Virus record (IMG/VR): IMGVR_UViG_3300043788_000060
Coordinates: 32,001 to 96,000 of that record
Direction: 5' to 3' (one strand)
Length of the DNA stretch: 64,000 nucleotides
Source of the DNA: a virus
Shown in pieces: positions 27,121-45,394 of the stretch. The notes beneath the pieces are model-generated. The model was not told where the DNA came from. It searched no databases and was given only the letters and a program-made list of their open reading frames with translations. How positions within the stretch are numbered: the stretch's first letter is position 1; every line of letters begins with the position of its first letter. The position numbers were made by a program, and so were the translations under genes.

Positions 27121-27837
27121 ATGGCTTCCTCCACGATCCAACTTCAGCGGACGATCAACCGCTCCTCGCAATACGCCCGCTTGGAGCCACTGACGTTTGT
27201 CTCAAATACCGCTAATGACCCGGCGTTTTCAAACGCCGATTGGGTGATGCAGACTATTTTGGCTCCCCCGTTTGCGTGGAGATGGAACAGGACCTCGGAA
27301 GGAACTCCGTCGGCCCCTGCGTTTGTCACTGAAATCGGCGTAACGGACTATCAAGTTAATCTCCCAACTTTTGGTTGGCTCGAAAAGGCTACTTTGTACG
27401 ATCCAACTTCTGGATACGCGGCTCTGGAATTGCAAGTAGAACTGATCAAGGCTATCGAAACCAACCCTATCCAACCCCAGCGTATCGCAACACAACTTGA
27501 CGACGGACAAGGAAACATAACGTTCCGATTATTCGGGTCCCCGGATCAGGTCTATAATGTTTGTCTGGAATTTCAAAACGCGGCCCAATTATTCACCGAT
27601 CCAACAAATACGTGGGCTCCTATTCCGGACTACTTATCATACATCTACAACGAAGGCATGGATTATAAGACGTTTGAATATTTGTCGGACCCCCGTATGC
27701 AGACATCTGGACAGTTGTTCTTTCAATCCCTCGCTGCGGCTTCTGAAGGGCTGACGGAATCTCAGAAAAATCTTTGGCTAAGTGACAAAATGAATACGCT
27801 CCGTCAGACTGCATCCGTTCAATCGGGGAGGGCCTAA
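27121..27837 (+). CDS. head-tail adaptor-like protein
   Basis: PFAWRWNR, PDQVY and APIPDY motifs; paralog of 40352..41443. Confidence 0.7.
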   Translation: MASSTIQLQRTINRSSQYARLEPLTFVSNTANDPAFSNADWVMQTILAPPFAWRWNRTSEGTPSAPAFVTEIGVTDYQVNLPTFGWLEKATLYDPTSGYAALELQVELIKAIETNPIQPQRIATQLDDGQGNITFRLFGSPDQVYNVCLEFQNAAQLFTDPTNTWAPIPDYLSYIYNEGMDYKTFEYLSDPRMQTSGQLFFQSLAAASEGLTESQKNLWLSDKMNTLRQTASVQSGRA

Positions 27838-28136
27838 TGGGAACAGCAACTACCGGGTTTCATCGCTTTAGTAACGTCACTGCTCGGGCTCCATACTCAA
27901 CTACCCAAGAGGTGGTTCCCGGGGCTACTATTTATGTAACTTTGACGACGACCGGAGCCGGGGCTGTTATTTATTCGGACCCGGGACTGTCTGTAGTTAT
28001 ACCGGGGTCGTTGATTACTGCCGACCCCTCGGGGTGGTACGAATATTATATTCCCCTGAATTACAACGTGACAGAAACCATTACCTCGGTTTCCGGATTG
28101 AATTTTACGATCACGAACATCGTGTCTAACACATAG
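27837..28136 (+). CDS. stand-alone fiber-attachment domain, paralog of the N-terminus of 28144..35031
   Basis: ATTGFHR..VVPGATI..IYSDP..TAD..G.Y.YYIPLNY.VTETIT aligns with the mature N-terminus of the next gene. Confidence 0.8.
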   Translation: MGTATTGFHRFSNVTARAPYSTTQEVVPGATIYVTLTTTGAGAVIYSDPGLSVVIPGSLITADPSGWYEYYIPLNYNVTETITSVSGLNFTITNIVSNT

Positions 28137-28143
28137 GATTGGA

Positions 28144-31100
28144 ATGAAGAAATTTCTTCTCATCGTCGCTTTGTTCCTCGCAATCTGTCCATTATCCGGA
28201 CTGAATGCTCAAGCCACGACCGGCTATCATCGGGTAAATCAGGTGCTGTCCCGAGCCTCTACCGGGATCAACGCTCAGGTGGTCCCCAACGCCAGAATCA
28301 CGGTTACCCAAACGGCTACCGGAACTGCGGCAACTATCTATTCCGACCCCCTGTTGTCCAACCTTATAACTCCGTCTGTAGTCACTGCCGATAACGCAGG
28401 GAACTATTCATATTATGTCCCTCTGAACTATTGTGTAACAGAAACAATCACTGCCCCCGGTCAGGGGACTCAGATAATCCCTAACATCTGTTCAAACAGC
28501 GCCAGCAGCAGTACCTTTCCTTCCCCTCCGTCATTTTCTGTACAATTCGCAAACAGCGGGTCATCGGCTTTTGATAGTGATTCGACTATTAACGTCACTC
28601 CCTCTACTCATACCCTTACTTCTCCAACGGTACAACCGGGTCAGGATGTTACCCAGAGTTCTCCTGTTATAGACATTCGCAACACTGCCTTTGCGGGCGG
28701 TGCGGTGATCGACGGCCACACCGATATTAGCCCCGCAGTGTGCGCCGCCCGTGAAAGTTGGAGCGCCTCACATCCGGGTCAAAGTCAGACAATTTTATTG
28801 GCCTGCGGCGGCGGTGGTTCATCCGCTTCTTGCTGGTGGGCTAACCCTTTGGCGAGTTGTTCTGGAAGCATAGGCAGTGATTTTAAGTACGTCCTGCAAG
28901 GCACTCTCAATGTAGGTACCACGTTGTCCGTTGGTGCGGGTGGGGCTTCTATAGGCGCGTCAGAGTTCGATGGGGAATCGGGAGAGTTTGGAACTCAATT
29001 CCAAGGCACTTTGGCGACAGCAGTAGTCAACGGTCCTCTATGTTTTGGTACGCTCGGCACCGCAATCACAACGATCAACACCCCGGTCACGGTGACGCCG
29101 ACATTTTCCGGAACGACTATCGGCGGTGCATGTTCGATTGCAAATCTTCCGGTAAATTCCGCGCTGACTATGCGCGGCATGGAAACGTCAGCGGCTACGG
29201 GTACGCGGTCTTCAACTTCACTCAGCGGAAGCGGTGGGTACGCGGTACTGACCTTATCTTCTGCCGTGCGTATTTCGGCGGGGTCGAACATTCAGGTAAC
29301 TGGCTGCTCAGACACAGCGTTCAATACCGGTACTCTGGGAACGCTGTCACAAAGCGTAGTCGCCACTCCGGATTATCCCAATCAGCAACTCGGCTATTAC
29401 ATCTCGACATCTGGTACCGGGTCATCAACAGGATGCACGGTGAAGGGGGCCAGTGACGACCGTTTTGAGACAGAGCTAGTGCAGTGCTCAAACGGCACGG
29501 CTAATCCCGGATACTCCTGCGGCGCGGGACAGATCACTTTCGTAAACGCCCATACATACGCATCGACTGACCAGTGGGGCGAAGTGGCGATGGAAAGCCC
29601 GTTCAACGACGGGGCCGGTGGAACTGGGTTGGTAATGAAGCGGATTCTAGTCCAAGGTTCCGCAGGAGCAGAATTCTTCTCCGATGAGTCCATCCATGAG
29701 ACGTTCGAGGATGATGGGTTTATTGCCTTTGGGACGCCCACTTCGATTCCTTTCGAGGCAGATTACCCGCAGAACCTCACAGTCCATTCATCGGCTTTTA
29801 ATTCGGTCAACAATGGGTATAGCACTTGCCAATCCGGTAACTGTGGGAACGTGAGTTACCCGTTCGGATTTCGCTGTACCATGATCCCGCCCAGTATCAG
29901 TTCTTATCAGGCGGGAACGTGTAACAACTCGAAAATTGATACTTACTCTCAGGTTCGCGGTGGAATCAAAGTCGATACCAACGGATTCTCTCTGAACTTC
30001 GGTATTGAGGCAGCAGCCCCGGAACTTGACCGTGTTTTAATCGAGGAGCCTGTATGGGGTGGAATTACTTTCGATACCCGAGATGGAGTCACAGGCCCGG
30101 TTTACATCAAGGATAGCTACTTACAGGATTTCGTTTCTGGGAGCACCGATCAGGCTTTTATTGCTGCGGAAAATCCGGGGGGCACTGGATATATTTTTGA
30201 GAACAATACCTACTCAGAAAATCCTTTTCTCGTCAATAAATATTGGTATAGTCCAGCAATCAGTGTGCGCGGAAACATCTCTGATCAGCTTTATACTCCG
30301 TGGCCTTATCAAGGGATAGGGGCTGTAGGGCTATTTGAGGACAATGGATTTCTCAAGGGTGAAGTTGAAGCTCCCGCATTTACTGGTTTCGAGAGTTTGC
30401 CCTTCGGTTCGCTCGCTGTAAATCAGTCGCCTGCATCTTGGACTTCGGCTTGCAGCACGAACTGTACGGTAACAACGGTTCAAGACCCCACAGGCGGTCA
30501 GAACGGCGCTAATATCGCCTCAAACTCAACCACTCATCAAACGATCCTGATTAGCATACAATCCGTATCCACCTACCCCGGCGATCAGTTTATCTTTATG
30601 GATTGGTTGCGTCCCGGTACCGGACAACTCATACCTAATGACTGGCGAGGTAACTATCCATTCCAACTCCAAACTTTGGGCACGGATACCTTTCAGAACA
30701 ACGGATGCGAAAGCGGCATTGGGTCAAATACAGCCTGCGCTACTAATTACGGACTTCCTATGTTGAACGACGACTGGGCACCTTACGTGGCTACCGCCAC
30801 TATCGGGACAGGCGAGTCAGCAGCGCACTTCATGGAGTTTAATCTCGAAAGCGGCCAATGCACGAATGGTTCGATCCTCAACTGCGGAACACAGCATTTC
30901 TGCCCGCAGTGGGCTTTTGTACCGGGGCCTAATAACCCCTCCTACACAGGTGTTTCTACGTTCGACGTGCAAATCGCCCGCATGTACAACTATCACGGTT
31001 GTGCGCCGGGCGGGTTACTTGCCGGACAGGTGGCGACTAATCAAACTGTTGTAGCCGCCCAGATTATCGATTCAGGAACCCCATCCAGCACAGCCCCGCT

Positions 31101-34100
31101 ATGTCCAAACGGTCCTAACGGTCAATTCACTACTTCTGGTTGCGTAGCTGGTGCGGTAACCTCCGTCTCCAACTCCGATGGAACTTTAACTATCTTCCCA
31201 ACAACGAGTGCGGTAGTAGCCTCTCTAAACACAAGCCACGCGAATTCATGGACCGGGTTACAGACGTTTGGAACAGATATCTCTATAGGCGGTGTAACAG
31301 CTACAGGGGCCACAGGAACTGGTAACGTCGTATTCTCGGCTGCTCCGACCTTTACCGGAACAATCACGGGGGTAAATCTTACGTTGACCGGTATTGAGTC
31401 GGGCAGCGGAAGTTCTTGCTTGCAGATCAGCACTGCCGGAGTCATCAGCAATACAGGAGCCCCCTGCGGATCGGGAAGCGGCGCGGTTAATTCTATCACC
31501 GGAGACGGCGGTATAATCACCAACAGCCTATCTACCGGTGCCGTTACTCTGACTTTAGGAGCTACAGAAGCAGGCCAGTTTATAGTGGCTTCTGGGTCGG
31601 GAACCGCCGTATGGGGAAAGCAAGTCACGCTTGGTCACCAAAATGATAGCGGCGCTTTAGCTAACGGCTCTCTTACGATTGCCGGTAGCACAACTGCGTC
31701 TGGAAATTTAACTCTTAACGGAACAGGGTCTTCTCCCGGACAGATGTCGTTATTCCTTAATTCTGCCGGAACTATTATGGATTTGGGAAGCACCAACGCC
31801 ACGGTATCGGCAGCCGGGGCCTATGTTGGAACGAATGTAACTGATTCAGCACTAAACGTGGCTGGATTGGTAACTAACTCGTCTGCTGGACTTCTAGGAA
31901 CAGAAGCTAATTGTACTATCGCACAAGGATGTACGAACGCAACTAGTGCGACGGCGGGTACAGTTCCTAACGCTACTAGCGGGACTGCGTCTAGCTGGAC
32001 CCCAACTCCTGCGTTGGGAACAGACAACAGTGTGTCCGGAACTCTACAACTTTCGAATAACACCGCAAACGCCCACTCAATTCTCGGAAGCGCGGCTACG
32101 ACAAGCAACACGGTCAAGTTATTTGCTACCACTCCTACAAATCTGGATTTGATCTATTGTGCCAGTTCTGGAGGAGTATGCACGCTAACCGACGCCGGTT
32201 ATGCCTACAACTCAATTCCATTAGCTGATATTGCTTCACAATCAGCCAATATCATAGTTGGAACCACAACCAGCGGTAGTCCCGTAGCTCTGTCCGCTCC
32301 TTCTTGTTCAGGGGCAACTAACGCTCTAATTTGGACAACTGGAACGGGTTTTGGTTGCAACACAATCACCACAAGCAGTGTTGCTTTCTCTGGGCTCACC
32401 TCCTCGACCAATACCACAGCAGCTATGGTCGTTGGAACCGGAGCAAGTCTGTCTACCTCCGGATCGGGAACTATCGTAGCCACAAGCAGTCCATTTTCCG
32501 GACTAACTACCTCTACAAATACTACGGCTACCATGACTGTCGGAACTGGGGCAACTATTACCTATTCCGGGTCGGCGGTGATAAACTCCACCGCAGTAGA
32601 ATCGGCTGGAGCTATTACAACTAACGCAACTTATTATTTCCCGATTATATCTTCAAGTTCGTCCGGAAACTACGAGTTGAATGCTGTAGCTGGTCTAACA
32701 ATTAACCCGTCAACCGGGTCTATGGATGTTCCTTCGGGCATCGCAACTGGCGGACTATCCAACACAATCTCCGGGGGAACAGCAGGATTCTATGGTCCAA
32801 TAGAAGGAACCGCTCCCACTGCTATAACGGGCTCTGGCAATTTTGATATCATCTATGCGGATTCGACTCTGCACGCCGACATGGAGTGCCCGGAGTCTAA
32901 TTCAACCGCCGTGACTACATGCCTGCCCGTTGCCTTGATGCCAGCTACGAGCACGGCTGGGGATGTGGTGTATAGCACTAACTCAAACGGGTATAACCTA
33001 TCGGATGCTGGATACCCATACAACGCAATCCCCAACGCCGATCTTGCTCATTCTGCAATAACCATCGCAGGCACCTCAGTATCTTTGGGTGGATCAACTA
33101 CTTCGCTCCCGAGTCCCGGCGTAATCGGCGGAACAACCCCGGCGGCGGCTACCTTCACGGCTCTGACCGCCAACACGAGTCTCGTAATCAACGGCGGAAC
33201 GGCTCAAACTGGAACACAAGGCACTGATACAAAGCTACTGACAGCCGGAACTATAAGCGGTACCAGTATACTTCTTTGCACGGATGCAAACGGCGGAGCA
33301 ACCACCACAAGCTGCCCGAGCGGTGGTTCTGGGGTTGTGTCAGCCGCTGCACAATACGATATCGCATACTACACTCAGTCGGGGACTACAGCACAAGTCG
33401 GCGGAGCGGCAATTAGTGGTTTCCAATTCGATTCAACTTCCGGAGCACCAGCCGCGGCTACCGCAGCGCAACTTGGAACTCTGGCTGCTATTGCAACTGG
33501 AGATTTGGTCTACAGCGGAGGAACGTCATCGGCGCTCCAAGGAAGCGCAGACTTCACGATTTCATCGCATACTCTGACTGGAGGATCAAACGCTATCTTC
33601 GATATGAGTGCTGGCGTGAACGTGAAACTGCCGGTCACCGCTTCTTACACTAGCGCAGCCAATGGCGAACAGGGTTACGACTCAACAAATAAGAATTGGC
33701 ATATATGGGGAAACGCTGTTGATAATTTCAATGTGATCGTACCGGTATCAACATCGATCACGAACGGCCACTGTTCTCAATGGTCTCTATCAGGCGGTGT
33801 GCTGACGCTCATCGATGCTGGTTCAACGTGTGGCTCGGACTCCGGTGGAGGAATATCGGGGTGGTCTGGAACACCGTTAACCTTTATTTCAAGCACTACA
33901 CAATATGCTCCCCCAGTGGGCGGAGGCTTGACCGCCACTTCCGAATCGACGGCAGACGTAGCTGCGCCTGCTGCCGAAACTATCTCCAGCCTTGCTGTAA
34001 GTCTTAGTGCGGCCTTGGGCGCTGGTGCAACACTCCAAGTCACCTTCCGAGATAACGGCGCGTCAACGGCGCTTACTTGCACTACAGCATCGGGTGGAAC

Positions 34101-35031
34101 GTCCTGTACCGACACGACGCACAGCGTGAACATCGCTAAGGGCGATTTGATCGATCTATTGTTGGTCTCTTCCGGCACGGTAACCGCTGGTGTTCCTCAA
34201 ATTATCGCAAACTATGCAGTCGGCACGAGTGGTGTCGGTGTGACTAGTATTGCCACTACAGGCCCCATCACTGGCGGGACAATCACTTCGACGGGTACCA
34301 TCGCCTGCGCGACGTGCGTTACCAGCGCCGCGTCACTGACGGCCAACGGCATCGTAATTGGCGCAGGGAGTCAAGGGGCACAAACCTTGGCTTTAGTGGC
34401 GAACGCGGTCCTCAGCACAAACAGTATCGGCGTGCCATCGGAAAGCACAACGTTGCCTATCGCGCTGACGATTCCCGACGCTGCATCGATTCAGGCGCAG
34501 ACGGTTCTTCCGCTCACGCAAGTTGGCATCTACAATACAGCGGCTCTGCCGGTAACGACTACCAATCCGGCATTGACTTCTTACACTGTCTCAAAGAATC
34601 GTCGCGCCTGCGTGATCGATAACGATACGCAGTCAGCGACCGCACTGACAGCGGCGCAGTTCTCAGGGAAATGCGTCATTCCGTTTGCGGCGACCATCGT
34701 CGAAGTAGACGTTTCGGGCGGAACGCAGACCTTGAACGGAACCGCGACGGCTCCGACTTACACAGGTACAAGTTCGATCCAGATCGGCAAATCTGGAGCG
34801 CAAAACGTAACCGGAATTCTTTCGGGAGTTCTTGCTACGGCTTCGGGCAGGGCCTGTGCGGTTGCGGGAACTTCGGGAACCTGCATTTTCGATAACGGTA
34901 TGACCAGCAGCACGACAGTACAACTGTCTGATACCTCGGTCGCAGCCGGAGATCAACTTTACATTTCTGCCGCAACGGCGGACGCAACACAGACGTGGTA
35001 CGACGTAACCATTGTCTACACGGTAAATTAA
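28144..35031 (+). CDS. giant tail fiber/tailspike-like protein with Sec-type signal peptide
   Basis: MKKFLLIVALFLAICPLSGLNA-Q; attachment domain; beta-helix entry motif VIDIRNTAFAGGAVIDGHTD; many GxVTSV and PCGSG fiber repeats; Cys-rich. Confidence 0.8.
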   Translation: MKKFLLIVALFLAICPLSGLNAQATTGYHRVNQVLSRASTGINAQVVPNARITVTQTATGTAATIYSDPLLSNLITPSVVTADNAGNYSYYVPLNYCVTETITAPGQGTQIIPNICSNSASSSTFPSPPSFSVQFANSGSSAFDSDSTINVTPSTHTLTSPTVQPGQDVTQSSPVIDIRNTAFAGGAVIDGHTDISPAVCAARESWSASHPGQSQTILLACGGGGSSASCWWANPLASCSGSIGSDFKYVLQGTLNVGTTLSVGAGGASIGASEFDGESGEFGTQFQGTLATAVVNGPLCFGTLGTAITTINTPVTVTPTFSGTTIGGACSIANLPVNSALTMRGMETSAATGTRSSTSLSGSGGYAVLTLSSAVRISAGSNIQVTGCSDTAFNTGTLGTLSQSVVATPDYPNQQLGYYISTSGTGSSTGCTVKGASDDRFETELVQCSNGTANPGYSCGAGQITFVNAHTYASTDQWGEVAMESPFNDGAGGTGLVMKRILVQGSAGAEFFSDESIHETFEDDGFIAFGTPTSIPFEADYPQNLTVHSSAFNSVNNGYSTCQSGNCGNVSYPFGFRCTMIPPSISSYQAGTCNNSKIDTYSQVRGGIKVDTNGFSLNFGIEAAAPELDRVLIEEPVWGGITFDTRDGVTGPVYIKDSYLQDFVSGSTDQAFIAAENPGGTGYIFENNTYSENPFLVNKYWYSPAISVRGNISDQLYTPWPYQGIGAVGLFEDNGFLKGEVEAPAFTGFESLPFGSLAVNQSPASWTSACSTNCTVTTVQDPTGGQNGANIASNSTTHQTILISIQSVSTYPGDQFIFMDWLRPGTGQLIPNDWRGNYPFQLQTLGTDTFQNNGCESGIGSNTACATNYGLPMLNDDWAPYVATATIGTGESAAHFMEFNLESGQCTNGSILNCGTQHFCPQWAFVPGPNNPSYTGVSTFDVQIARMYNYHGCAPGGLLAGQVATNQTVVAAQIIDSGTPSSTAPLCPNGPNGQFTTSGCVAGAVTSVSNSDGTLTIFPTTSAVVASLNTSHANSWTGLQTFGTDISIGGVTATGATGTGNVVFSAAPTFTGTITGVNLTLTGIESGSGSSCLQISTAGVISNTGAPCGSGSGAVNSITGDGGIITNSLSTGAVTLTLGATEAGQFIVASGSGTAVWGKQVTLGHQNDSGALANGSLTIAGSTTASGNLTLNGTGSSPGQMSLFLNSAGTIMDLGSTNATVSAAGAYVGTNVTDSALNVAGLVTNSSAGLLGTEANCTIAQGCTNATSATAGTVPNATSGTASSWTPTPALGTDNSVSGTLQLSNNTANAHSILGSAATTSNTVKLFATTPTNLDLIYCASSGGVCTLTDAGYAYNSIPLADIASQSANIIVGTTTSGSPVALSAPSCSGATNALIWTTGTGFGCNTITTSSVAFSGLTSSTNTTAAMVVGTGASLSTSGSGTIVATSSPFSGLTTSTNTTATMTVGTGATITYSGSAVINSTAVESAGAITTNATYYFPIISSSSSGNYELNAVAGLTINPSTGSMDVPSGIATGGLSNTISGGTAGFYGPIEGTAPTAITGSGNFDIIYADSTLHADMECPESNSTAVTTCLPVALMPATSTAGDVVYSTNSNGYNLSDAGYPYNAIPNADLAHSAITIAGTSVSLGGSTTSLPSPGVIGGTTPAAATFTALTANTSLVINGGTAQTGTQGTDTKLLTAGTISGTSILLCTDANGGATTTSCPSGGSGVVSAAAQYDIAYYTQSGTTAQVGGAAISGFQFDSTSGAPAAATAAQLGTLAAIATGDLVYSGGTSSALQGSADFTISSHTLTGGSNAIFDMSAGVNVKLPVTASYTSAANGEQGYDSTNKNWHIWGNAVDNFNVIVPVSTSITNGHCSQWSLSGGVLTLIDAGSTCGSDSGGGISGWSGTPLTFISSTTQYAPPVGGGLTATSESTADVAAPAAETISSLAVSLSAALGAGATLQVTFRDNGASTALTCTTASGGTSCTDTTHSVNIAKGDLIDLLLVSSGTVTAGVPQIIANYAVGTSGVGVTSIATTGPITGGTITSTGTIACATCVTSAASLTANGIVIGAGSQGAQTLALVANAVLSTNSIGVPSESTTLPIALTIPDAASIQAQTVLPLTQVGIYNTAALPVTTTNPALTSYTVSKNRRACVIDNDTQSATALTAAQFSGKCVIPFAATIVEVDVSGGTQTLNGTATAPTYTGTSSIQIGKSGAQNVTGILSGVLATASGRACAVAGTSGTCIFDNGMTSSTTVQLSDTSVAAGDQLYISAATADATQTWYDVTIVYTVN

Positions 35032-35044
35032 CCAAGGAGAATCT

Positions 35045-35836
35045 ATGAAGAAGTTTATTTTTGTGATCGCGATGCTGGTAATTGCCGCCGTGATTGGGGG
35101 TGCCCAGAACCAAGCTCCTGTTACAGGTCCAATTGCTCCTAACGGGTTTGCCATACCAAACGTCAATTTGATAGACGATTTTCTCGGCAATACTCCAGCG
35201 ACTTCGACGACAATCGGGCAATTGGGGTGGGATTCTACCGTTGTTTCTGGTGGAACCAACCCAGTTGCTGCTACGGCTTCTGTAGCCAATCATCCGGGGC
35301 TGATTACCCTCACTACTGCTGCAACAACTGGTGACGGTGTATATGTGTCGTTGGGTCACGCGGTGGGAGTTCTATTTCCCGGTAACACAACCAACTGGCA
35401 AGCGGAATGGATTCAGGAGTACAACCAGATATCCACAGGTTCAACTAGAATCGGTTTTGGTACTGTCGATTCGTCTTCTGCTATTCCGACAAACGGCATC
35501 TATATCCGATATCTTCAAGGCACGGACTCTTTCTTGAATGTCTGCTCGGATACTTCTTCAACAGAGACCTGCGGGGCGACGACCATTCTTCCAACCGCAG
35601 CGGACTACGTTGACATCATTATGAGTTCGTCTGCTACCGGGACGATCAGCGTCACGGTAAACGACATCACGACTCCGGCGACTTCTACGATAAGGGTATG
35701 CTCAAGCGGCTGCAACGTTACAGCGACTCCTCCAACAGGAGTCCTATCACCTATGTTCTCAATCGTTTCAACCAGCAACACGGCGGATGTCCTGACTGTG
35801 GATTATTGGAACTATCAACAAATCGCCGCCAGATAA
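35045..35836 (+). CDS. secreted beta-sandwich fiber-tip-like protein
   Basis: Signal peptide MKKFIFVIAMLVIAAVIGGA; DDFLG..GQLGW..HPG..LTVDY motif pattern. Confidence 0.7.
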   Translation: MKKFIFVIAMLVIAAVIGGAQNQAPVTGPIAPNGFAIPNVNLIDDFLGNTPATSTTIGQLGWDSTVVSGGTNPVAATASVANHPGLITLTTAATTGDGVYVSLGHAVGVLFPGNTTNWQAEWIQEYNQISTGSTRIGFGTVDSSSAIPTNGIYIRYLQGTDSFLNVCSDTSSTETCGATTILPTAADYVDIIMSSSATGTISVTVNDITTPATSTIRVCSSGCNVTATPPTGVLSPMFSIVSTSNTADVLTVDYWNYQQIAAR

Positions 35837-35840
35837 TATA

Positions 35841-37373
35841 ATGAAACGACTTATCCTATTTTTGTTCTTTCTGTTCTCGGTACCTACGTGGGCGGTTACC
35901 CCAGTTGTTCTTCAGTATTTCGGCGGTCCGAATGAGTCAAACGAGTTTGCGCTTACGACCAGTTTGACAAAGAATGTTCCGTTGGCTAGAGCCGCGACTG
36001 CTGGGGATACGCTCGTCTGGTGCATGTACTACAACACCGGAAGCGGCTGGGCTGTCAAGACAGATGCAGGCGCTGAGACTTTTACCGAAGGCGTTCATGG
36101 AACCGATTCGGGTGTCGGAACATTGGACTGCTACTACTTCATCAACTTGGCAGGCGGTGAAACTAGTATCCAGATCACGCACACGTCAGGGAGTCCTACC
36201 TATGTGGGCGGAGTGGGATACGAAGTGAACAACATCACCGCTCATCACGTCGCCGGAACCTGTACGTCGGGGTCAGGGGCACTAGGACAGGCAGCTTCTA
36301 CGACAGTTACTTCCGGCACTACAGGGACAGTCGCATCGGGAGATTGGCTTTCTGTCTACACCTTTCAATTCTCGACGCCGCAATTGACGGTTGCCTACGC
36401 TCCTGTGACCCACGCGAACATCACTTGGCAGATGATTCATTCGGAACTGATGGTCGCGCAAGCCATGATGGTAGGTCAATATAGCACTACCACAGCCTTC
36501 CAGCCTTCAATGACTCAAGCCAACGTGCAGACCTCGAATATGTGTACGGATGCTTTCACGACGGGCACCAGTGGAGCGGCGGGATTCCCGACAGGCGAAG
36601 TTGTGGCTGGAGTGCAGGCCGAGACGTTCTTGAACGGTGGCACGAATCCGATGGATATAGAAATAACGCCTATCGGAAACACGCTCGTGGTAATGGGACC
36701 AACGGGGTTTGGTGGATATTTCACGTCGGTCACGAGCAGTCCAAGTGCAACGTGGAAGTGGAATGACGGGTCGGGCAGCGACCCGGCTAGGTGTTTCGAT
36801 TCAGGCGATGTTACCGAGACGCCTTACTTCTACGCTACGGGTCTGACTCCGGGCACGACCTACACCATCACGGTAACTTCTAATACGGCGGCAGTCGATA
36901 CAGCCTTCGCTGAGTTCGATATTGCTAAAGGGTCAACCCCGAACATCGGTAGCGCCGGTTCATGTAATACCGGTGTTTTTTCTGCGACCAGTGGAAATCT
37001 GAATATCAGCCTTACCACAGGAGGCGGTGCGGCGACCAATGCGGCCTTTGTACCAACGAGCGCCAATGGGATCGTTATTTCCAGCGACAGCGTATCGTTC
37101 GATACAAACTCTGGCACTACAACCTCCGGCGCATTTGTCAATATGGGCTACAACAGCGGAGCGACCCAGATTGGAAACAGCCCGTGGTACGAGAATGACG
37201 GAGATTTAAGCTATCCGCATAGTTCAACGTCGAGTGTGGCCTTCATCTACACAATCACCAGTTCTCCCCCCAACACATCAAGTGATGTAAGTGATTGGTC
37301 CGCTTCTACCATCGATGTTCCCGCAGCGTCATCACCGAGCACTTCCATACACCATAAGGTTACATCGGAATGA
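35841..37373 (+). CDS. secreted T/S/G-rich repeat protein
   Basis: Signal peptide MKRLILFLFFLFSVPTWA; repeated beta-sandwich modules. Confidence 0.7.
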   Translation: MKRLILFLFFLFSVPTWAVTPVVLQYFGGPNESNEFALTTSLTKNVPLARAATAGDTLVWCMYYNTGSGWAVKTDAGAETFTEGVHGTDSGVGTLDCYYFINLAGGETSIQITHTSGSPTYVGGVGYEVNNITAHHVAGTCTSGSGALGQAASTTVTSGTTGTVASGDWLSVYTFQFSTPQLTVAYAPVTHANITWQMIHSELMVAQAMMVGQYSTTTAFQPSMTQANVQTSNMCTDAFTTGTSGAAGFPTGEVVAGVQAETFLNGGTNPMDIEITPIGNTLVVMGPTGFGGYFTSVTSSPSATWKWNDGSGSDPARCFDSGDVTETPYFYATGLTPGTTYTITVTSNTAAVDTAFAEFDIAKGSTPNIGSAGSCNTGVFSATSGNLNISLTTGGGAATNAAFVPTSANGIVISSDSVSFDTNSGTTTSGAFVNMGYNSGATQIGNSPWYENDGDLSYPHSSTSSVAFIYTITSSPPNTSSDVSDWSASTIDVPAASSPSTSIHHKVTSE

Positions 37374-39793
37374 AGAAACTCTTTCTTCTTGCATTTGCTA
37401 TCGTGCTGACGGCACCGTTATGCGCCCAATCGTGGTCGAACGTACTATCTTCTTCGCGGGCCATAAACTGGACCAACGCCGGATTACCTGCCACGTTGCC
37501 TGATGGGGAAACGACTCCCAATCCGTGGACCCCTCCGACTCGTCCCGCATGTACCACGGGGCAGGCCGGAACAACCGTTCCCATTCCCTCGGGTGCTTCG
37601 GTTACGACGATCAACTCGGCCATTGCTTCCTGTGCAGCAGCCAACCCAAACGGATCATACCTGCTGCTTGGTGGGTCTACAGCCAGTCCTGCGACGTTCA
37701 CTGTCGCGTCCACGCAGTTAAGACTCGTTGATACCTCGGGCGGCATTTCGCACAACGCTGTCACCCTGCGAGGTGGCGGAGCAATGGCAACGAAGATTGT
37801 AGTGACAGGTACAGGTGTAGTTGTCTTTGGAAATGCTTGGAGTTCTGGATCGGCTCCGTGGACCGCCGGGTTTAGTCAAGGCACAACATCAATCACCGTT
37901 GGAACTCCTACATCAGGAACTATTCCTGTGGCAGGCAATTTGGTTCTATTACAGATGTGCAACACCGGGTTTTCTGGAGCGGGCTGCTCTACCGGATCAG
38001 TTGCAGATAACGGCAATGTGTTTCTGTGTGGTGGATCAACTTTCTGCGCAAATCAGGCAGGCAACGATACTCTTCAGGGTCAGATGGTAAGAGTCACCAG
38101 CGTAACCGGCTCAGGCCCATACACAGTTAATTTCACACCCGGTCTTTACATGCAAAATTGGACTTCTACCGGAGGGGGTTCGACGATGAGTTGGACCGGG
38201 GCTGGGTCGATTAACTCTCCTTATGGTATAGGTCTGGAAGATTTGACGGTTGATGAGACGGGAATATGGAACACAGAAAACTTTGGCATTCAATTTGATT
38301 ATGTCTACGCATCGTGGATGAAAGGCGTCCGCGTAGTGGGGTCAGGAGAAGCGGATTCGGTCGAGTTCGAGGATTGCAAAAATAGTCTGATATTCAACTC
38401 TATGTTTGATGACTATTCCTACAATCGTGGAGATTTATCTCTTTCTATTCAGGAAACCAACGATTCCGATAATCTAATCCTAAATACTCAGATGCTCCAC
38501 GGACTGTCTTGGGAAGGTCATGGACCCAACGAGGGGGATATTCTGGCGTACAACTTCATTGGCCAGACTCATACCCTTTATTATGAAGCAAATCCGTTTC
38601 AGCACACCCCGGGCACGGCGTTTACTCTTTATGAAGGAAATGAAACCGGCCATATCACAGACGATGACACTTGGGGAACCGCAAACCTGAATACGTTTTT
38701 CCGGAACTATATGTCGGGATGGGACCCGCCGTATCTTCTCTCAAGCCAGTGCGCTTCTTTATCATGTGTGGCAATGAAAGTGGATGGGGGGCACCGATTC
38801 GCTAATGTCATTGGTAATGCTATTGGAAGCCCGTTCCTGACGAACTATCAGGCTACATTGTCAACCCCAACTAACGGGATCACCAATAACGCTGTCTATC
38901 GATGGTCAGCAGACATGAACGACCCCCTCGTTTTGCTCACAGTCATGAGATGGGGAAATGTTTCTTCAGTAACGCAATCGTCAGACACTCCTGCTAATTC
39001 AGGTATCCGGTTTGTATCGTCAGAAGTTCCCTCTTCGATCAACGTCAATGGGCAGTGTTCTGCTAGCGCCAGTCCATATTCCTGTTGCACAGGATCGGGA
39101 ACAGGAACATGCTCTGCTTCGACGTGGGCGAATTCAGTACCTTCCAATGACAATCTGCCGTGTTCGTTTTTCCTTGCCGGATATACTGGAACCAGTTGTA
39201 CTCCTACCCACACAGGTGGTACTGGGCTAAGCTGGTGGAAAGTATGCAAAACATGGGCGACTTTTCCCACTTCCTGCTCCGCCACCCAAACCCAAGCCTT
39301 TCCGATTGCCGGTCCAGACATCACGAGCGGTCCATACGTTGGGGGAACGGCTTATGATGTTCCGGCCTACGTTGCGTTTACCACTCTGCCGGTTGATACG
39401 ACCTACGAGAATTCCTACTCGATCACCGGCTCCAGCTGGTCGGGGACTTGCGCAAACCAACCATCGGGAACCTATGCTTGTGAAACCCTGACTGTCACCG
39501 GATTACCTTCCGGCAGCGCCCACATTATGGGCGATATCCAGATATCAGGGACTTCCGGATGCAACACGTCTACGAACGGTGTATTTACCATGACAGCGTC
39601 AAGTCTTAGCGGCACTACAGGAACCATAGTGTATCCTTTGGCTTCTAACCCCGGTTCATGTTCTGGCGGAACCATGCTATTTCCGGTGGTACGTCAGTTC
39701 GATGAAGCAGTCTATCAAAACGATCCTGCGGGAAACCCAATCGGATCAGTCCTATCCCCCTCAAACATATTTGGAAAATCAGTAATTCAATAA
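37370..39793 (+). CDS. secreted pectin-lyase-like beta-helix protein (depolymerase candidate)
   Basis: Signal peptide MKKLFLLAFAIVLTAPLCA-Q; TINSAIASC, VTLRGGG, GIGLEDL and LYEGN beta-helix motifs. Confidence 0.72.
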   Translation: MKKLFLLAFAIVLTAPLCAQSWSNVLSSSRAINWTNAGLPATLPDGETTPNPWTPPTRPACTTGQAGTTVPIPSGASVTTINSAIASCAAANPNGSYLLLGGSTASPATFTVASTQLRLVDTSGGISHNAVTLRGGGAMATKIVVTGTGVVVFGNAWSSGSAPWTAGFSQGTTSITVGTPTSGTIPVAGNLVLLQMCNTGFSGAGCSTGSVADNGNVFLCGGSTFCANQAGNDTLQGQMVRVTSVTGSGPYTVNFTPGLYMQNWTSTGGGSTMSWTGAGSINSPYGIGLEDLTVDETGIWNTENFGIQFDYVYASWMKGVRVVGSGEADSVEFEDCKNSLIFNSMFDDYSYNRGDLSLSIQETNDSDNLILNTQMLHGLSWEGHGPNEGDILAYNFIGQTHTLYYEANPFQHTPGTAFTLYEGNETGHITDDDTWGTANLNTFFRNYMSGWDPPYLLSSQCASLSCVAMKVDGGHRFANVIGNAIGSPFLTNYQATLSTPTNGITNNAVYRWSADMNDPLVLLTVMRWGNVSSVTQSSDTPANSGIRFVSSEVPSSINVNGQCSASASPYSCCTGSGTGTCSASTWANSVPSNDNLPCSFFLAGYTGTSCTPTHTGGTGLSWWKVCKTWATFPTSCSATQTQAFPIAGPDITSGPYVGGTAYDVPAYVAFTTLPVDTTYENSYSITGSSWSGTCANQPSGTYACETLTVTGLPSGSAHIMGDIQISGTSGCNTSTNGVFTMTASSLSGTTGTIVYPLASNPGSCSGGTMLFPVVRQFDEAVYQNDPAGNPIGSVLSPSNIFGKSVIQ

Positions 39794-39801
39794 GGAAAAC
39801 A

Positions 39802-40317
39802 ATGAAAAAGTTTGTTCTTTCGCTTATCTTTTCGGCATCGGCGTTATTAGCTGGAGTCGGTTGCGCACACGCAGGTCAGCTTCCTCCAACGCCCGGATAC
39901 AACACCGTGTGGACATGGACGGCCCCTAGCCCGTGTAGCGGGTGTACCTATGTTGTGTCCACGCTCGTTCTGTCCAGTGGGACGACTTGCCCCGCGTCAA
40001 CAGGATCGAATTACATCCCTCAACAAACTGTGACCACAGGAGTAACTGGGACGACTTGGACCCAGACAAACACAACTGGGTTGACGTTGTGTGCTGTTGC
40101 CCAGACAATTCAGGGGGGAAATACTTCCACTGCTTCAGCACAAAGCGCAGCGGTAATTAACCCGACCCTGCCATCAGCCCCCGGAGTACCAAGCGGAAAT
40201 TCGGCGGTATCTGCGTTGGCTCCCCCTGTCTCCCCAAACTCCCTGCCAGTGCCTAGCTCCCAGATGGCAATGAATATTCCTATGCAGATTGTAGGACATT
40301 CGGTTCCGAGACAATAA
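39802..40317 (+). CDS. secreted FN3-like protein
   Basis: Signal peptide ending AHA (or lipobox-like VGC); WTWTAP..Y.V..S..S pattern. Confidence 0.62.
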   Translation: MKKFVLSLIFSASALLAGVGCAHAGQLPPTPGYNTVWTWTAPSPCSGCTYVVSTLVLSSGTTCPASTGSNYIPQQTVTTGVTGTTWTQTNTTGLTLCAVAQTIQGGNTSTASAQSAAVINPTLPSAPGVPSGNSAVSALAPPVSPNSLPVPSSQMAMNIPMQIVGHSVPRQ

Positions 40318-40351: not shown

Positions 40352-41443
40352 ATGCCTGTATTACCCGGGAACCAAGCTAATTCGCCGACAGTTCAGCAGA
40401 TAGCTCAACAACTAAAAGCGGACCCCTCTTTCTATAACATATTAGGAGGGGCTGCTGGTTGGGCTACCGAACCAATCCTGACTATCGCCAACGAAGTTCT
40501 GTCGCGAATTCTCGCCGAGAACATGCCTTGGATTTGGAATCGGGCAATCGTTCCTCCGTTCTTAACTGTCAGCCTTCAGCAGGATTATTGCACTCAGCTT
40601 ACGGATATTGGGTGGTTGGAAGATGGCTGGCGTATAGACATCAACAACTCGACATCGAATAACAACGGGGCCCCGAAACCTATCTTTAGCCTCGAAACGG
40701 TCAGGTACACCCCGCAGGCGTCCGCCCAATCCGTACCATTCAACATTAGCTTCGTCCCTAACTCACAGGCGTTTCTAGGATCGTGGCAGGCTAATACTGC
40801 TTATGGTTGTGGGTATGGAGTTCCTATGACTCCTCGAACCCCCATCCAGCAGTTCATGGATGTAAATGGCAACATCCTATACATCGACTCGACCCAACTA
40901 GGATTGACCATTTCTTCTCCGGGGTACACTGGAACTACCATCCTTCCCCCCGGAACAGTGTTTCCTTACGGCACATCTGGGGCTACTCAACCCGCCGCTC
41001 CTCCTAACGCTACTCCCGGAACTTTAGTTCAGGATGGTTCGGTCATTTGGGCAGTCGCTGATCCAAATGGTTATGCGATACGGCTATTTCCTCTTCCGGC
41101 GTTGAACGGTCTCTGTTGGTGGATCGTAACTCAGTATCAGGTAGCTCCCCCGGTTATCGCAAGATTGCAAGATTCGATTGCTCCTATTCCTAACTACATG
41201 GCGTACCTCTTCCGTCAAGGGTGCCGGGCGATGCTCTATCAGTTTCAAGGAAACCAGCAAGGTACTCAAATGTATCAGGAGTGGGAAGAGCAACTTTTTA
41301 AGGCTTTGAGAGCGGGGGACCGCCAGCAATCAGACGAGCGTCTATACCCTGATCATTCAATTATGGGAAGCTACAACCCGTGGATGGACCCTGCTGGCAT
41401 TGGCGCAGCTTGGCCTTATGGCCCCGGCCCGTATGCCTATTGA
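40352..41443 (+). CDS. head-tail adaptor-like protein 2
   Basis: PWIWNR, IRLFPLP and APIPNY motifs; paralog of 27121..27837 with a W-repeat insert. Confidence 0.7.
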   Translation: MPVLPGNQANSPTVQQIAQQLKADPSFYNILGGAAGWATEPILTIANEVLSRILAENMPWIWNRAIVPPFLTVSLQQDYCTQLTDIGWLEDGWRIDINNSTSNNNGAPKPIFSLETVRYTPQASAQSVPFNISFVPNSQAFLGSWQANTAYGCGYGVPMTPRTPIQQFMDVNGNILYIDSTQLGLTISSPGYTGTTILPPGTVFPYGTSGATQPAAPPNATPGTLVQDGSVIWAVADPNGYAIRLFPLPALNGLCWWIVTQYQVAPPVIARLQDSIAPIPNYMAYLFRQGCRAMLYQFQGNQQGTQMYQEWEEQLFKALRAGDRQQSDERLYPDHSIMGSYNPWMDPAGIGAAWPYGPGPYAY

Positions 41444-42165: not shown

Positions 42166-42171
42166 AGTTTT

Positions 42172-42229: not shown

Positions 42230-45200
42230 ATGCCCAATAACCTTCAAAAAGTCGGAGCACAGCCCAGCAGGCCCGCACGGTTTGGCGTTCTCTGGCACAA
42301 CAATTTCTATCTCGGCATGGTTACTCAGCGGAATCCGCTGCACAGCTACCTGCAACACATCGAAGAGGAGTTTTACGGAAACCAACCGGCGCTGATTGGC
42401 GGGTCTAATACCGAGGTCTCTACCAAGCTGACGTTAATCCGCAGACCGGGACACTCTGTCTACAACTCAAGTACCTTTCCGACAATAAACCGGTTCTACG
42501 AAAACCGGTTGTCGATTTTCAATGCCACCCAAACGACGACCACCGAGTCAATTCAGATCGTCGCAGATTGCGCACCTGTCACACAAGGACCGTTTACCTT
42601 CAATATTTCCAGTGTACAGGTTCTGAAAATTCAAACGAATTTCAGCATCATCCATCCTACATATACCTACTACGCTCTGGTAACTTTCTCGACGACTCTA
42701 CCAAGCGTTGTCTATGGACAAACTTTTACCTTTTCCGGTCTTACTGGATATACCGCCTTAAACGGACATGCGTTAATCGGCGTATCGTCCGTAATTAGAT
42801 ATCATTTGTCTGCTGGACCCAATCAGGCGCTTTTCTCGTTTGGGTCTGCTGCTTATCCAAATACCCCGGATACCGGAATAGCGACGGTTCCTGCTGTAAC
42901 CGGAGTAGGAACCGTAAGAGATGTTACCGGCCCTTCGACTAACAAAGTTCTGTTTTCTAAAACAGCGGGGGCCGGAACCGCGAGTTTTCAATCGGTCGGA
43001 AACACTCTATATTTTTCGGACGGCCCCGATCAGGAAAAACTGATTACCCCTAATCTAATCTGGTCGGCTAATCAGACTTTCAATACCGGAAACCAAGTTT
43101 TAGACACCAACGGAAATCTTCAGATCGTCCAAGGAACCGGAACAGCCACGATAACGGAAATCGCAGTTATCAGTTCTACTCTAGGAGTAGTCGGCGGTCC
43201 TACCCAATATTTCTTACAGATAACTTTCTCTTCCGAAGTGTTCTGGACTCAAGGAACACTCGTTACTTTCTCCGGGGTTACAACTTATACGTCTATAAAC
43301 GGTCAGACCCAGACCGTTGTGGTGAATCCTACCTATCTTCCTCCGGGAGTTAACACAGCTTATTTCACGACAGCAGCAATCACTACCTACGGTCCGGCGG
43401 TGGATACAGGCACAGCCACTTCTACGAATTCTACCGGCAGTGGAACCAGCGGAGGCACAACTCCTTCTTGGAGTCCAACAATAGGCGGATTTACTACCGA
43501 CGGAGATTTGACGTGGCAAAACTTCGGAATCCCTCTTTATAACTGGGCAGTACCCCCTCCGACTCTCCCCCCCACTTTAAGCATACCGTCTGGAAACAGA
43601 TACTGGCAGCCAAATTTTTCGGTTCCTCAGTGGTACTCCGTTTTAGACCAGAACAATCATATTCAGTTTGTATCCTCCCCGGGAATCACAGGAACCCAAC
43701 AACCTGTTTGGAGTAGCTTATACGATACCGGGTCTTCGTCCAACGGAGTTGTAGCGGGGTCTACTACAGACGGGACTGTAACTTGGCTAAACGCCGGTCC
43801 ATTAGGCACGTGGCAGGCCGACACGACGTATTATGTTTTCCAGTGTATCTTGGATTCAAACGGGAATATTCAAATCGCAGAAAGCGGAGGAACCAGCGGA
43901 GGCTCCGCGCCTGTCTGGAACACAACTATTGGAGTAACTACCACAGACAACACTATTACTTGGGTTTGTGCAGGTCCCGGTCACGTTATCATAACCGGAA
44001 ATGTATATTACGGGTATAGTTGGGTCTCTACGGACGGAAGTGTAACCACCTCCTCGCCAGTAGTTTCTCTAAATATCAACAGTGCGGTTTTAGGCCCCGC
44101 AGGAAACCCGATAGCGACAGTGTCCGGAAGTTTCCCGGCTGATCAACAGGTAACGCAGGCATGGGTATGGAGATCGGTTCAAGGTGGGTCAGCAGCAGAG
44201 TTATTCTTCGACTCTGCCCAGTACAACCCCACTCCCGGTGCCGGGTCTAACTGGTCGTTCAACGATGTAATCCCAGATGTTTATCTGAACGAACTAATTC
44301 AGGCACCTCTGGATGACCAAAACGATCCTCCTCCTGTAGGACTAACGGCTCTTGCCTATCACCTCAACCGCGTGTGGGGCTCCGTCGGAAATATTGTTTT
44401 CAGTTCTCAGACCTCCGGTATCGTCGGAAACCCCTACACAGCTTGGGACCCGGGAGTGTTCTTCACTTTCCCGGACACCGTGGTACGATTGTGGCCTACC
44501 TCAAACGGTCTGCTCGTATTTACGGTCGCCGATATTTTTGTCATTCAAGGATTGGGAGATGCTTCTAGTTCCTTCTTTTCGACACCGTTCTTACAAGGAA
44601 CGGGGCTTGCGAATTACGATGCTTTTACAGTAAAAGGCGCGATTCCGTATTTTTATACCACAGACAATCAGGTACTTACAATCGACCCAAGCACTGGACT
44701 ATCAGAAGTAGGGGCCCCGGTCGGAGATCAATTTGGTCCGAATAATGGAACAAACACCTTTCTTCCTTCTACGGCTCGGTTGACTTGGAATTTCTCCGGG
44801 TCGCAGGAAAAGGCGTTGTACGTTTCGGATTTCTCTCAGAACTGGTGGAGGATGTTACCCACCCCGTCTCCAGAAACCGGAACAACGTGGTGCCCAATGG
44901 CAACTATTGTCGGCGGGTTCTCCGCTGTTCAGTCGGTAGAAACTTCCCCGGGAATTCATAACTTGTTGCTGGGTCCACAGACGACCGGTCCGATTCTTAT
45001 GAGAGACCCGTCTGTCTATTCCGACAACGGTTCGTCGTACAGCGCCTATACCATAATCGGCAGCATAGTTCTGGCCCAGCCGGGACAATTGGCGTACATC
45101 AAATTGTTAACAACAGACTGTCAGGCAGTAGGAACTCCGATAACCCTTGAAGTTCAATTGGATGAGATAGCTCCGTTGTCTTCCGGGTATTTCGAACCCT

Positions 45201-45394
45201 TAACTTTGTATGTTCCTGATCCGACCCAGTTAACCGCCCCTAACAGCTTATATGCACAACGATTCTATATGTCGCAGACGCAACAACCGGCGGTATGCAG
45301 GCACTTCCAAGTTCTAGTTTCTTTTGGAACCGATGTTGTTAAGAACGAATTACTTAGCCTGTCTATTTTCGGTGCCTACGATCAAGAGGACTAA
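42230..45394 (+). CDS. tail nozzle / stabilization protein (P22 gp10 or T7 gp12-like) with inserted W-rich repeats
   Basis: LTLIRRPG N-terminus, propeller-like C-half (YHLNRVW, LLVFT), position before the ejection genes. Confidence 0.68.
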   Translation: MPNNLQKVGAQPSRPARFGVLWHNNFYLGMVTQRNPLHSYLQHIEEEFYGNQPALIGGSNTEVSTKLTLIRRPGHSVYNSSTFPTINRFYENRLSIFNATQTTTTESIQIVADCAPVTQGPFTFNISSVQVLKIQTNFSIIHPTYTYYALVTFSTTLPSVVYGQTFTFSGLTGYTALNGHALIGVSSVIRYHLSAGPNQALFSFGSAAYPNTPDTGIATVPAVTGVGTVRDVTGPSTNKVLFSKTAGAGTASFQSVGNTLYFSDGPDQEKLITPNLIWSANQTFNTGNQVLDTNGNLQIVQGTGTATITEIAVISSTLGVVGGPTQYFLQITFSSEVFWTQGTLVTFSGVTTYTSINGQTQTVVVNPTYLPPGVNTAYFTTAAITTYGPAVDTGTATSTNSTGSGTSGGTTPSWSPTIGGFTTDGDLTWQNFGIPLYNWAVPPPTLPPTLSIPSGNRYWQPNFSVPQWYSVLDQNNHIQFVSSPGITGTQQPVWSSLYDTGSSSNGVVAGSTTDGTVTWLNAGPLGTWQADTTYYVFQCILDSNGNIQIAESGGTSGGSAPVWNTTIGVTTTDNTITWVCAGPGHVIITGNVYYGYSWVSTDGSVTTSSPVVSLNINSAVLGPAGNPIATVSGSFPADQQVTQAWVWRSVQGGSAAELFFDSAQYNPTPGAGSNWSFNDVIPDVYLNELIQAPLDDQNDPPPVGLTALAYHLNRVWGSVGNIVFSSQTSGIVGNPYTAWDPGVFFTFPDTVVRLWPTSNGLLVFTVADIFVIQGLGDASSSFFSTPFLQGTGLANYDAFTVKGAIPYFYTTDNQVLTIDPSTGLSEVGAPVGDQFGPNNGTNTFLPSTARLTWNFSGSQEKALYVSDFSQNWWRMLPTPSPETGTTWCPMATIVGGFSAVQSVETSPGIHNLLLGPQTTGPILMRDPSVYSDNGSSYSAYTIIGSIVLAQPGQLAYIKLLTTDCQAVGTPITLEVQLDEIAPLSSGYFEPLTLYVPDPTQLTAPNSLYAQRFYMSQTQQPAVCRHFQVLVSFGTDVVKNELLSLSIFGAYDQED

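Follow-up and report, generated by a model that had tools for sequence, protein, structure and literature searches.

Predicted signal peptides across a receptor-binding cassette of an uncultured soil phage and a possible periplasmic route for its fibres

Introduction

Tailed-phage morphogenesis is taught as a wholly cytoplasmic process, and Sec-exported endolysins are known in phages. A tail locus from an uncultured soil virus raises the question of whether receptor-binding proteins might also be exported and, if so, whether they ever rejoin the particle. The locus lies in a 64,000-nucleotide stretch of DNA (hereinafter the window), namely bases 32001–96000 of the 110,256-bp IMG/VR virus record IMGVR_UViG_3300043788_000060, which is complete per CheckV. 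The window codes for a large terminase, an SU10/P22-type portal, homing endonucleases and a giant protein of 2322 amino acids (aa). Its source is a large podovirus-like soil phage, the host of which is probably a member of the Acidobacteriota. Among cultured phages, its nearest relative is Tunturiibacter phage Tunturi 3 (PP885686), a podovirus whose Acidobacteriota host comes from Arctic soil (PMC11924767); the terminases of the two are 26% identical. Between two tail genes of the window lies a cassette of six genes (P0001–P0006, positions 27837–40317), five of which encode proteins with apparent Sec signal peptides. The original prediction took these for fibre proteins exported to the periplasm for disulfide-dependent folding and attached at or after lysis, with decoration of the infected cell surface as the alternative. 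The evidence newly brought to that proposal comprises a cysteine (Cys) pair linked to the leader, a tailspike-type fold of the N-terminal anchor domain, a putative host origin of P0005 and a survey of the corresponding slot in related phages.

The cassette and its predicted leaders

All six genes are on the plus strand. The first, P0001 (27837..28136), encodes a 99-aa leaderless, Cys-free copy of the anchor domain, 53% identical to residues 24–118 of the following protein. This is P0002 (28144..35031), a 2295-aa fibre consisting of a signal peptide (residues 1–22; 28144–28209), the anchor domain (approximately residues 23–120; 28210–28503) and a mosaic Gly/Ser/Thr-rich body with 48 Cys. It is followed by four further signal-peptide proteins: P0003 (35045..35836; 263 aa), with a fold like the C-terminal tips of phage tailspikes and fibres; P0004 (35841..37373; 510 aa), with no match in Pfam or PHROGs; P0005 (37370..39793; 807 aa), a right-handed β-helix of depolymerase-like type belonging to a host-type family; and P0006 (39802..40317; 171 aa), a Thr/Ser/Pro-rich protein with only 1.8% charged residues. 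Pfam and PHROGs returned nothing for any of the six, nor for the two proteins that flank them.

The claim that five open reading frames (ORFs) each begin with MKK or MKR, a hydrophobic core and a small-residue cleavage site holds for those starting at 28144, 35045, 35841, 37370 and 39802. From P0002 to P0006 the N-termini with their predicted cuts (marked by a slash) are MKKFLLIVALFLAICPLSGLNA/Q, MKKFIFVIAMLVIAAVIGGA/Q, MKRLILFLFFLFSVPTWA/V, MKKLFLLAFAIVLTAPLCA/Q and MKKFVLSLIFSASALLAGVGCAHA/G, all of which fit the n-, h- and c-region layout of Sec substrates of signal peptidase I. Glutamine (Gln) occupies position +1 of the predicted cut in P0002, P0003 and P0005 and position +2 in P0006. The latter was also considered as a lipoprotein, but the residues before its Cys (G-V-G) are a misfit for a lipobox and the AHA/G cut fits better. 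To place these leaders against the rest of the 110-kb genome, we used a home-made rule calling for a net positive n-region, an h-region with an uncharged run of at least 10 residues and a mean Kyte-Doolittle hydropathy of at least 2.0 over 8 residues, and small residues at −3 and −1. It flags seven of 191 ORFs, namely all five in the cassette as against two of the other 186 (Fisher p = 1e-8); one of these two adjoins a glucosaminidase-like lysis gene.

Could the leaders be a product of misplaced starts or of chance resemblance? The public gene call for P0004 in the source genome lends this some colour, as it begins at an internal Met to give a 449-aa protein that has lost the signal peptide. 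Its homologues nevertheless conserve the longer N-terminus: the five database matches of P0004 are its own 449-aa call and four homologues at 29–85% identity, and leaders are present in all four of the latter, which point to the 510-aa form as the right one. Likewise, the starts across the cassette are credible because the genes are tightly packed (with 4–14 nt between them or overlapping at ATGA), sites of Shine-Dalgarno type (AAGGAG, AAGGA and AGGA) lie ahead of 35045, 39802 and 28144, and no in-frame ATG lies just after the hydrophobic segments. In P0002, the first internal Met is only reached at about residue 340. Thus, the concern that the true starts lie downstream was not borne out, and given also that five of five against two of 186 is far from chance, an annotation artefact is extremely unlikely. 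The clipped leader of P0004 also illustrates how automatic annotation may hide the same pattern elsewhere.

The paired Cys noted originally are likewise present, with mature Cys counts of 48, 4, 6, 21 and 4 from P0002 to P0006. Cys make up 2.1% of the cassette proteins as against 0.6% in the remaining ORFs of the structural arm, and the neighbouring 524-aa (47539–49113) and 2322-aa (49126–56094) proteins have none at all.

Conservation of the leader and a Cys pair that accompanies it

Leaders are kept in each of the homologue families that we examined. The family of P0005 has at least 408 full-length homologues at 41–60% identity; of the 13 inspected, 12 have a leader and, after it, Gln and a conserved W-S motif, while the remaining one is devoid of its N-terminus, and Gln20 is invariant across an alignment of 63. 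Among 44 homologues of P0003, nearly all that are full-length have a leader, which ends in AQ/N or GQ/N (e.g., ..AQ/NQAPV). For P0006, three related loci (L015–L017) have a leader-bearing homologue, 40% identical, that likewise comes last in the cassette.

The anchor domain offers the widest view. A profile built from 19 phage sequences and searched against 1.84 billion protein representatives matched 253 cluster representatives, so that this family alone amounts to more than 250 clusters at 50% identity. Among the best 150 of the 253, proteins of about 100 to 1843 aa, the domain is directly preceded by a leader, usually ending in Gln, in 140, while it begins at residue 4–5 in eight; the corresponding Gln21 is invariant in 69 anchor-domain proteins. 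The leader and the Cys of the domain go together. In close relatives, the pair NYC...NIC is found in 11 of 11 leader-bearing forms, whereas none of the eight leaderless forms has both Cys. Across the representatives, two or four Cys are present in the domain of 128 of the 140 leader forms as compared to none of the eight leaderless ones (p = 3e-8). Hence, over a very wide divergence, the Cys pair appears to be retained only where the leader is present. Furthermore, the leaderless paralogue starts exactly at the predicted mature start, and the domain begins at predicted mature residue 2–3.

These observations bear on the textbook assembly route, under which the hydrophobic N-termini would go unused for export and folding and attachment would both take place in the cytoplasm, as they do in model phages; the segment would be kept as a hydrophobic helix (serving trimer nucleation, docking or contact with the membrane) or cleaved off by some other protease. 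Such a route is the established one; moreover, the codons for CPLSG in the P0002 leader belong to a conserved 15-bp motif, so that some of the leader's conservation may be at the DNA level, and the annotation of the leader-bearing proteins gp085–gp087 of Cellulophaga phage phi18:3 (see below) is silent on leader cleavage. Against it, the n-, h- and c-regions are canonical and, while variable in sequence, retain the same character over hundreds of clusters; the Gln at +1 is invariant even when chromosomal host homologues are included; and P0005 retains the Cys of its secreted host relatives. A leaderless twin beginning at the mature end and a Cys pair that occurs only alongside the leader argue for an export route and are left unexplained by a cytoplasmic one, which we therefore regard as improbable. 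The secretion signals are thus very probably genuine: they are conserved in all homologue families, are followed by Gln after the cut and are tracked by the Cys pair. Judging from these sequence patterns, the cassette proteins are very probably exported by Sec, cleaved before Gln and oxidatively folded in the periplasm.

The placement of Gln recalls the Q-rule, which was described as specific to the Bacteroidetes (Bochtler et al. 2018, PMC5837995). As in that rule, Gln follows the predicted signal peptidase I cut in nearly all cassette homologues; the relatives of the window proteins, however, are from Acidobacteriota. Gln after the predicted cut is also seen in chromosomal proteins of Acidobacteriota metagenome-assembled genomes (MAGs), and the glutaminyl cyclase family PF05096 is present in two of five Acidobacteriota genomes with cellular homologues. 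Among phages, those of Porphyromonas encode Q-rule signal-peptide proteins of unknown function, for which a role in altering the host envelope has been suggested (Matrishin et al. 2023, PMC10367356). They resemble the window phage in that phage proteins follow the style of the host's secreted proteins, but differ in that their Q-rule proteins have no link to tail parts.

Folds of the anchor domain, P0002 and P0003

The anchor domain (all of P0001; residues 24–120 of P0002) models as a β-sandwich with a mean predicted local distance difference test score (pLDDT) of 87. In Foldseek searches, its best matches are chain A of the tail machine of cyanophage Pam1 (7eeq_A; 102-residue chain, template-modelling (TM) score 0.64) and the N-terminus of the Pan3 'Tail spike protein'. 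VIA-align likewise places 7eeq_A first (Z 9.4) and also lists the P22 tailspike N-domain (Z 7.3, 7.2 and 6.8) and Sf6 gp14N (Z 6.6); overall, the tailspike N-domains of P22, Sf6 and Pan3 align with Z-scores of 6.6–7.3 over 78–87 residues. At the sequence level, the Pan3 tail spike is the sole match of the anchor-domain profile in the PDB, with a marginal E of 0.04 over 48 residues. A further resemblance is to the periplasmic NTE domain of SusC-type transporters (9hfj). On the strength of the models, the anchor domain looks like a tailspike-type particle-binding fold. With P22 gp9N, Sf6 gp14N, Pam1 7EEQ chain A and Pan3 9VYG it shares an N-terminal β-sandwich of about 100 residues, and as in the podophage tailspikes the domain heads a long, variable receptor-binding protein encoded beside tail genes. 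The known podophage members differ in being leaderless and folding in the cytoplasm, whereas in the window phage a cleavable predicted signal peptide and a Cys pair precede or mark the domain; unlike the podophage tailspikes, the window phage also has a separate leaderless, Cys-free paralogue.

Elsewhere, leader-bearing anchor-domain proteins carry Gp53-like_C tail-fibre, K1-lyase_C, GDSL esterase, Laminin_G_3 and GH43 domains, and the body of P0002 has patches in common with other anchor-domain proteins in a mosaic fashion. No fusion of P0003–P0006 to the anchor domain was found among the 150 representatives. The ESM Atlas model of P0003 matches SO2946-like_C, DUF2793 and Mtd_N clusters, which are mostly viral. 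Sequence searches of the PDB with P0002, P0005 and a P0005 profile returned nothing useful, and tblastn of the anchor domain and P0005 against 50,697 GenBank phage records gave no match. Since the anchor is of tailspike type, P0003 is tip-like and P0005 is a β-helix, the cassette appears from the models to be one of receptor-binding and depolymerase-type proteins.

P0005 and its host family

The AlphaFold2 (AF2) model of P0005 is a long parallel right-handed β-helix (pLDDT 83.5, predicted TM score 0.89). Foldseek matches it to the Klebsiella K1 capsule lyase 7w1c (E 1.7e-12), with the tailspikes 4ru4, 4y9v and 9k4a (LKA1, AP22 and K64-1) among the top matches; together with the AlgE epimerases, which are secreted β-helix enzymes from polysaccharide operons, the K1 lyase, LKA1 gp49 and AP22 gp54 share the β-helix at E-values from 1.7e-12 to 1e-4. 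P0005 most likely cuts host polysaccharide. Unlike the tailspike depolymerases, it has neither an anchor domain nor a Pfam match, and its closest relatives (41–60% identity) are leader-bearing chromosomal proteins of Acidobacteriaceae polysaccharide-synthesis clusters. Homologues are found on contigs of hundreds of kb to Mb in MAGs of Acidobacteriaceae, Terriglobales and Bryobacterales. In one such locus (L026), the gene is flanked by those for Wzy_C, a Polysacc_synt_3 flippase, GT1/GT4 and GT2 glycosyltransferases, methyltransferases, an asparagine synthase and a nucleotidyl transferase, and a similar gene order is seen in two more (L036 and L041). A prophage origin of the chromosomal homologues was considered and rejected: their neighbours are Wzx, Wzy, glycosyltransferases and sugar-nucleotide enzymes, and the flanks share only a cellular-type single-stranded DNA-binding protein with the phage. 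P0005 also keeps Cys residues that are conserved in the secreted host relatives.

Maximum-likelihood analysis places P0005 and four close metagenomic copies together on a long branch of the tree (support 100), while a copy from a 97%-complete related phage genome (G004) falls elsewhere, among chromosomal sequences (support 100). As these copies lie on separate branches, phage copies have at least two placements in the tree. We read P0005, from its sequence relationships, as a secreted enzyme of the host exopolysaccharide machinery that was taken up by phages, leader included, the direction of transfer being drawn from abundance and the conserved chromosomal context and not from a rooted test. 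In G004, the homologue belongs to a second pair of leader-protein genes (L059, C1:43667–48980) upstream of the terminase gene, encoding a 777-aa fibre-like protein and a 747-aa P0005 homologue, which is located between homologues of the window ORFs 3124–3771 and 5091–5522.

A hypervariable slot between conserved tail genes

The cassette is bounded on the left by a tail protein gene homologous to Tunturi 3 gp13 (27121..27837, plus strand; BLASTP 30% over 280 aa, E 7e-33) and on the right by a structural protein gene homologous to gp12 (40352..41443, plus strand; 32% over 348 aa, E 3e-33). The two flanking proteins are weak paralogues of each other (29% over 89 aa, E 1e-4). Further to the right lies the homologue of gp19, a leaderless conserved structural protein of 1054 aa (42230..45394, plus strand; 40% over 591 aa, E 2e-115). 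Tunturi 3 shares gp12, gp13, gp19 and gp23 with the window phage, and also the layout of the slot: gp12 and gp13 are followed by the fibre genes gp14–gp18, with a short N-domain-only gp14 and then fibres with the N-terminus of gp14. In contrast to the window proteins, gp14–gp18 have no signal peptide or hydrophobic leader. Comparison by hhalign of the gp14 and gp15 N-termini with the anchor-domain profile found no similarity; hence, the parallel with Tunturi 3 is positional only. The expectation that the cassette lies where fibres belong is nonetheless upheld by the synteny of the slot with the Tunturi 3 fibre genes, the tailspike-type N-domain, and the fibre and depolymerase Pfam domains in relatives.

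A gp13-like protein is encoded by 23 IMG/VR loci at 58–81% identity, and among these relatives the slot between the gp13-like and gp12-like genes is hypervariable. It is empty in L009 and L010; holds only a leaderless 170–171-aa protein in L007/8, L018 and L021; combines a leaderless stub with leader-bearing proteins in L003, L004–6, L019, L020 and L022–24; and holds leader-bearing proteins alone in L011, L012 and L015–17. Where leader-bearing proteins are present in the slot of related phages, they number one to four. The survey of related phages for the same pattern thus recovered leader-bearing proteins in many of the 23 loci. In most relatives, the leaderless stub is a 171-aa protein (e.g., L003:1826–2341, L006:10198–10713 and L007:10708–11223) that combines the anchor domain with a C-terminal knob of about 75 aa, of which there are two types; P0001 of the window (99 aa) and its counterpart in L014 (101 aa) are truncated to the domain alone. 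Hypervariable content flanked by conserved tail genes typically points to determinants of host range, and the cassette is best explained as a hypervariable module for host recognition and polysaccharide depolymerization.

Leader proteins are missing from L007 and L010, in both of which the gp19-like gene is followed by one for a leaderless fibre. A fibre of this L007 type is absent from the complete source genome and from the 97%-complete G004, other leaderless types not having been searched for. A further genome (G002) has both the leader proteins and the L007-type leaderless fibre, and the complementarity of the two is therefore partial.

A 15-bp motif may mark the borders of this module. 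The motif, GTCCGAATAATGGAC, is found genome-wide and has 25 copies in the window against an expectation of 0, and in the rightward-transcribed arm (to about 56 kb) it is aligned with transcription except at two places. One is a reverse copy with a single mismatch within the leader codons of P0002 that specify CPLSG (28187..28201, minus strand) and the other an exact reverse copy directly after P0006 (40328..40342, minus strand). Eight related loci have a reverse copy at the corresponding place in the leader of their anchor-domain fibre (L003:4630, L006:10764, L011:10753, L012:12390, L014:11051, L015:10736, L019:11198 and L023:11971), and the last of these has another after its cassette, at 14980. 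These reverse copies may mark borders of exchange or recombination of the cassette. With the motif located inside leader codons, part of the leader conservation could therefore act at the level of DNA.

Do the exported proteins join the virion?

From the sequence features, conservation, fold similarities and gene contexts computed here, we infer export, disulfides, enzyme activity and all the steps of attachment. The route that we favour would run as follows. All five proteins would be Sec substrates with cleavable leaders; signal peptidase I would cut them, mostly exposing Gln, and they would fold with disulfides in the periplasm. The mature N-terminus of P0002 would then be a β-sandwich domain like the stub P0001, resembling the particle-binding domain of podophages. 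As holin lesions and lysis merge the cytoplasm with the periplasm, P0002, possibly preloaded with P0003–P0006, would dock on finished particles, and the virion would gain oxidatively folded fibres. That the exported proteins attach to the virion at lysis is plausible, at somewhat short of an even chance; the proposal draws on the anchor-domain fold, the missing L007-type fibre in two near-complete genomes and the precedent of tandem mass spectrometry (MS/MS) data from phi18:3. It is also favoured by the position of the cassette within a translationally coupled late operon and by the strong conservation of the anchor domain in exported forms.

The precedent concerns the Cellulophaga phage phi18:3 (NC_021794), a cultured podovirus in which three consecutive proteins, gp085–gp087, have canonical leaders with Gln at +1, ending in SQ/V, AQ/T and AQ/T. 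Its record assigns them to the virion or tail 'based on experimental MS/MS proteomics analysis', an annotation that gives virion membership while the cleavage state of the leader is not stated in the record. They differ from the window proteins in having unrelated sequences, a Bacteroidota host and few Cys (0, 1 and 3). We found no paper on the leaders of gp085–gp087, and no literature on signal peptides in tail fibres or receptor-binding proteins of tailed phages, in a search that most subscription journals lay outside.

A second parallel comes from the MAT fibres of Bdellovibrio bacteriovorus, which combine a signal peptide, a conserved β-rich N-domain of about 130 aa and a mosaic, trimeric body like that of phage tail fibres, with variable tips, some of which have disulfides; the exporting cell is a diderm (Caulton et al. 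2024, PMC10769870). Their parts come in the same order as those of P0002, to which they are likened by layout. They differ in being cellular, displayed on the surface of the predator and not phage-encoded, and in that many have S74 chaperone domains; no match to Peptidase S74 (Pfam) was found in P0002–P0006 or in 69 anchor-domain relatives.

The MAT fibres bring us to the alternative that the cassette proteins, though exported, never join the particle, acting instead within the envelope, at the infected cell's surface or in soluble form after lysis. They might cut exopolysaccharide to free the progeny, destroy or mask receptors (superinfection exclusion) or form surface fibres like the MAT adhesins, with the conserved N-terminal domain as an envelope anchor. 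Here, the resemblance of that domain to the SusC-type NTE domain would find a natural place, as would the membership of P0005 in a host family of secreted proteins encoded in polysaccharide-synthesis clusters, the occurrence of phage copies at two or more separate places in its tree, and the suggestion that the Q-rule proteins of Porphyromonas phages modify the host envelope. Several further observations weigh against attachment to the virion, or against the route as a whole. Among the leader proteins only P0002 carries the anchor domain, P0003–P0006 being without it; the docking sites could already be taken by the leaderless stub in the cytoplasm; the P0005 homologue of G004 and another leader protein are encoded outside the tail slot; the MAT fibres show the same architecture serving cell-surface display; and the nearest isolate, Tunturi 3, has leaderless fibres. 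Moreover, generic transthyretin-like sandwiches score Z 7–8, near the tailspike N-domains, and the sequence similarity to Pan3 is marginal, while the leader and leaderless forms of the anchor domain are paralogous clades, so that the association of Cys with the leader may reflect few evolutionary events.

What speaks against the non-virion alternative is that the best structural matches of the N-domain are the particle-binding domains of tailspikes, that most relatives encode its leaderless paralogue beside a tail gene, and that the cassette, at 11% of the genome, is part of the late structural operon. The want of an L007-type leaderless fibre in the two near-complete genomes (with the restriction to that type noted above) and the annotation of the leader-bearing phi18:3 proteins as virion proteins from MS/MS point in the same direction. 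On balance, we consider a non-virion role, for part or all of the cassette, possible, though somewhat less likely than attachment. Returning to attachment at lysis, we tentatively posit, with a little less assurance than for attachment itself, a large, uncultured group of tailed phages with a periplasmic branch of assembly, in which Sec export and disulfide formation would be followed by docking at lysis, the stub would serve as cytoplasmic occupant or socket, and the 15-bp motif in the leader codons would mark the left border of the cassette. Under this proposal, trimming by signal peptidase I would probably lead to a pyroglutamate.

Other features of the window and genome

A likely lysis region (L054, G000:C1:23852–25057) is located about 8 kb before the window. 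It encodes a 95-aa protein whose N-terminus is hydrophobic, a weak glucosaminidase-type endolysin and a 118-aa protein that begins with a twin-arginine-like leader (MNRRDLVAG...). Within the window, a 103-aa ORF at 21745–22056 has a leader ending in VA/Q if read from an internal ATG. The capsid-gene region contains homing endonuclease genes of the LAGLIDADG and GIY-YIG types (14734–15717 and 17074–17853), and a minus-strand ORF with a GIY-YIG-like N-terminus (41437–42183) lies between the gp12-like and gp19-like genes. The 2322-aa protein includes a DUF7178 segment and two PHROGs of unknown function.

Significance

If the proposed route is true, Sec, signal peptidase and the periplasmic disulfide machinery would become infection factors, and the final step of assembly would fall at lysis. 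In practical terms, recombinant fibres and depolymerases of such phages would need periplasmic expression, and gene callers that clip leaders would mis-annotate these proteins. Leaders of this style, with Gln at +1, could serve to assign hosts to uncultured soil phages. Finally, the locus presents a phage of the little-studied Acidobacteriota that carries what we read as a copy of a secreted enzyme from the exopolysaccharide clusters of its hosts.

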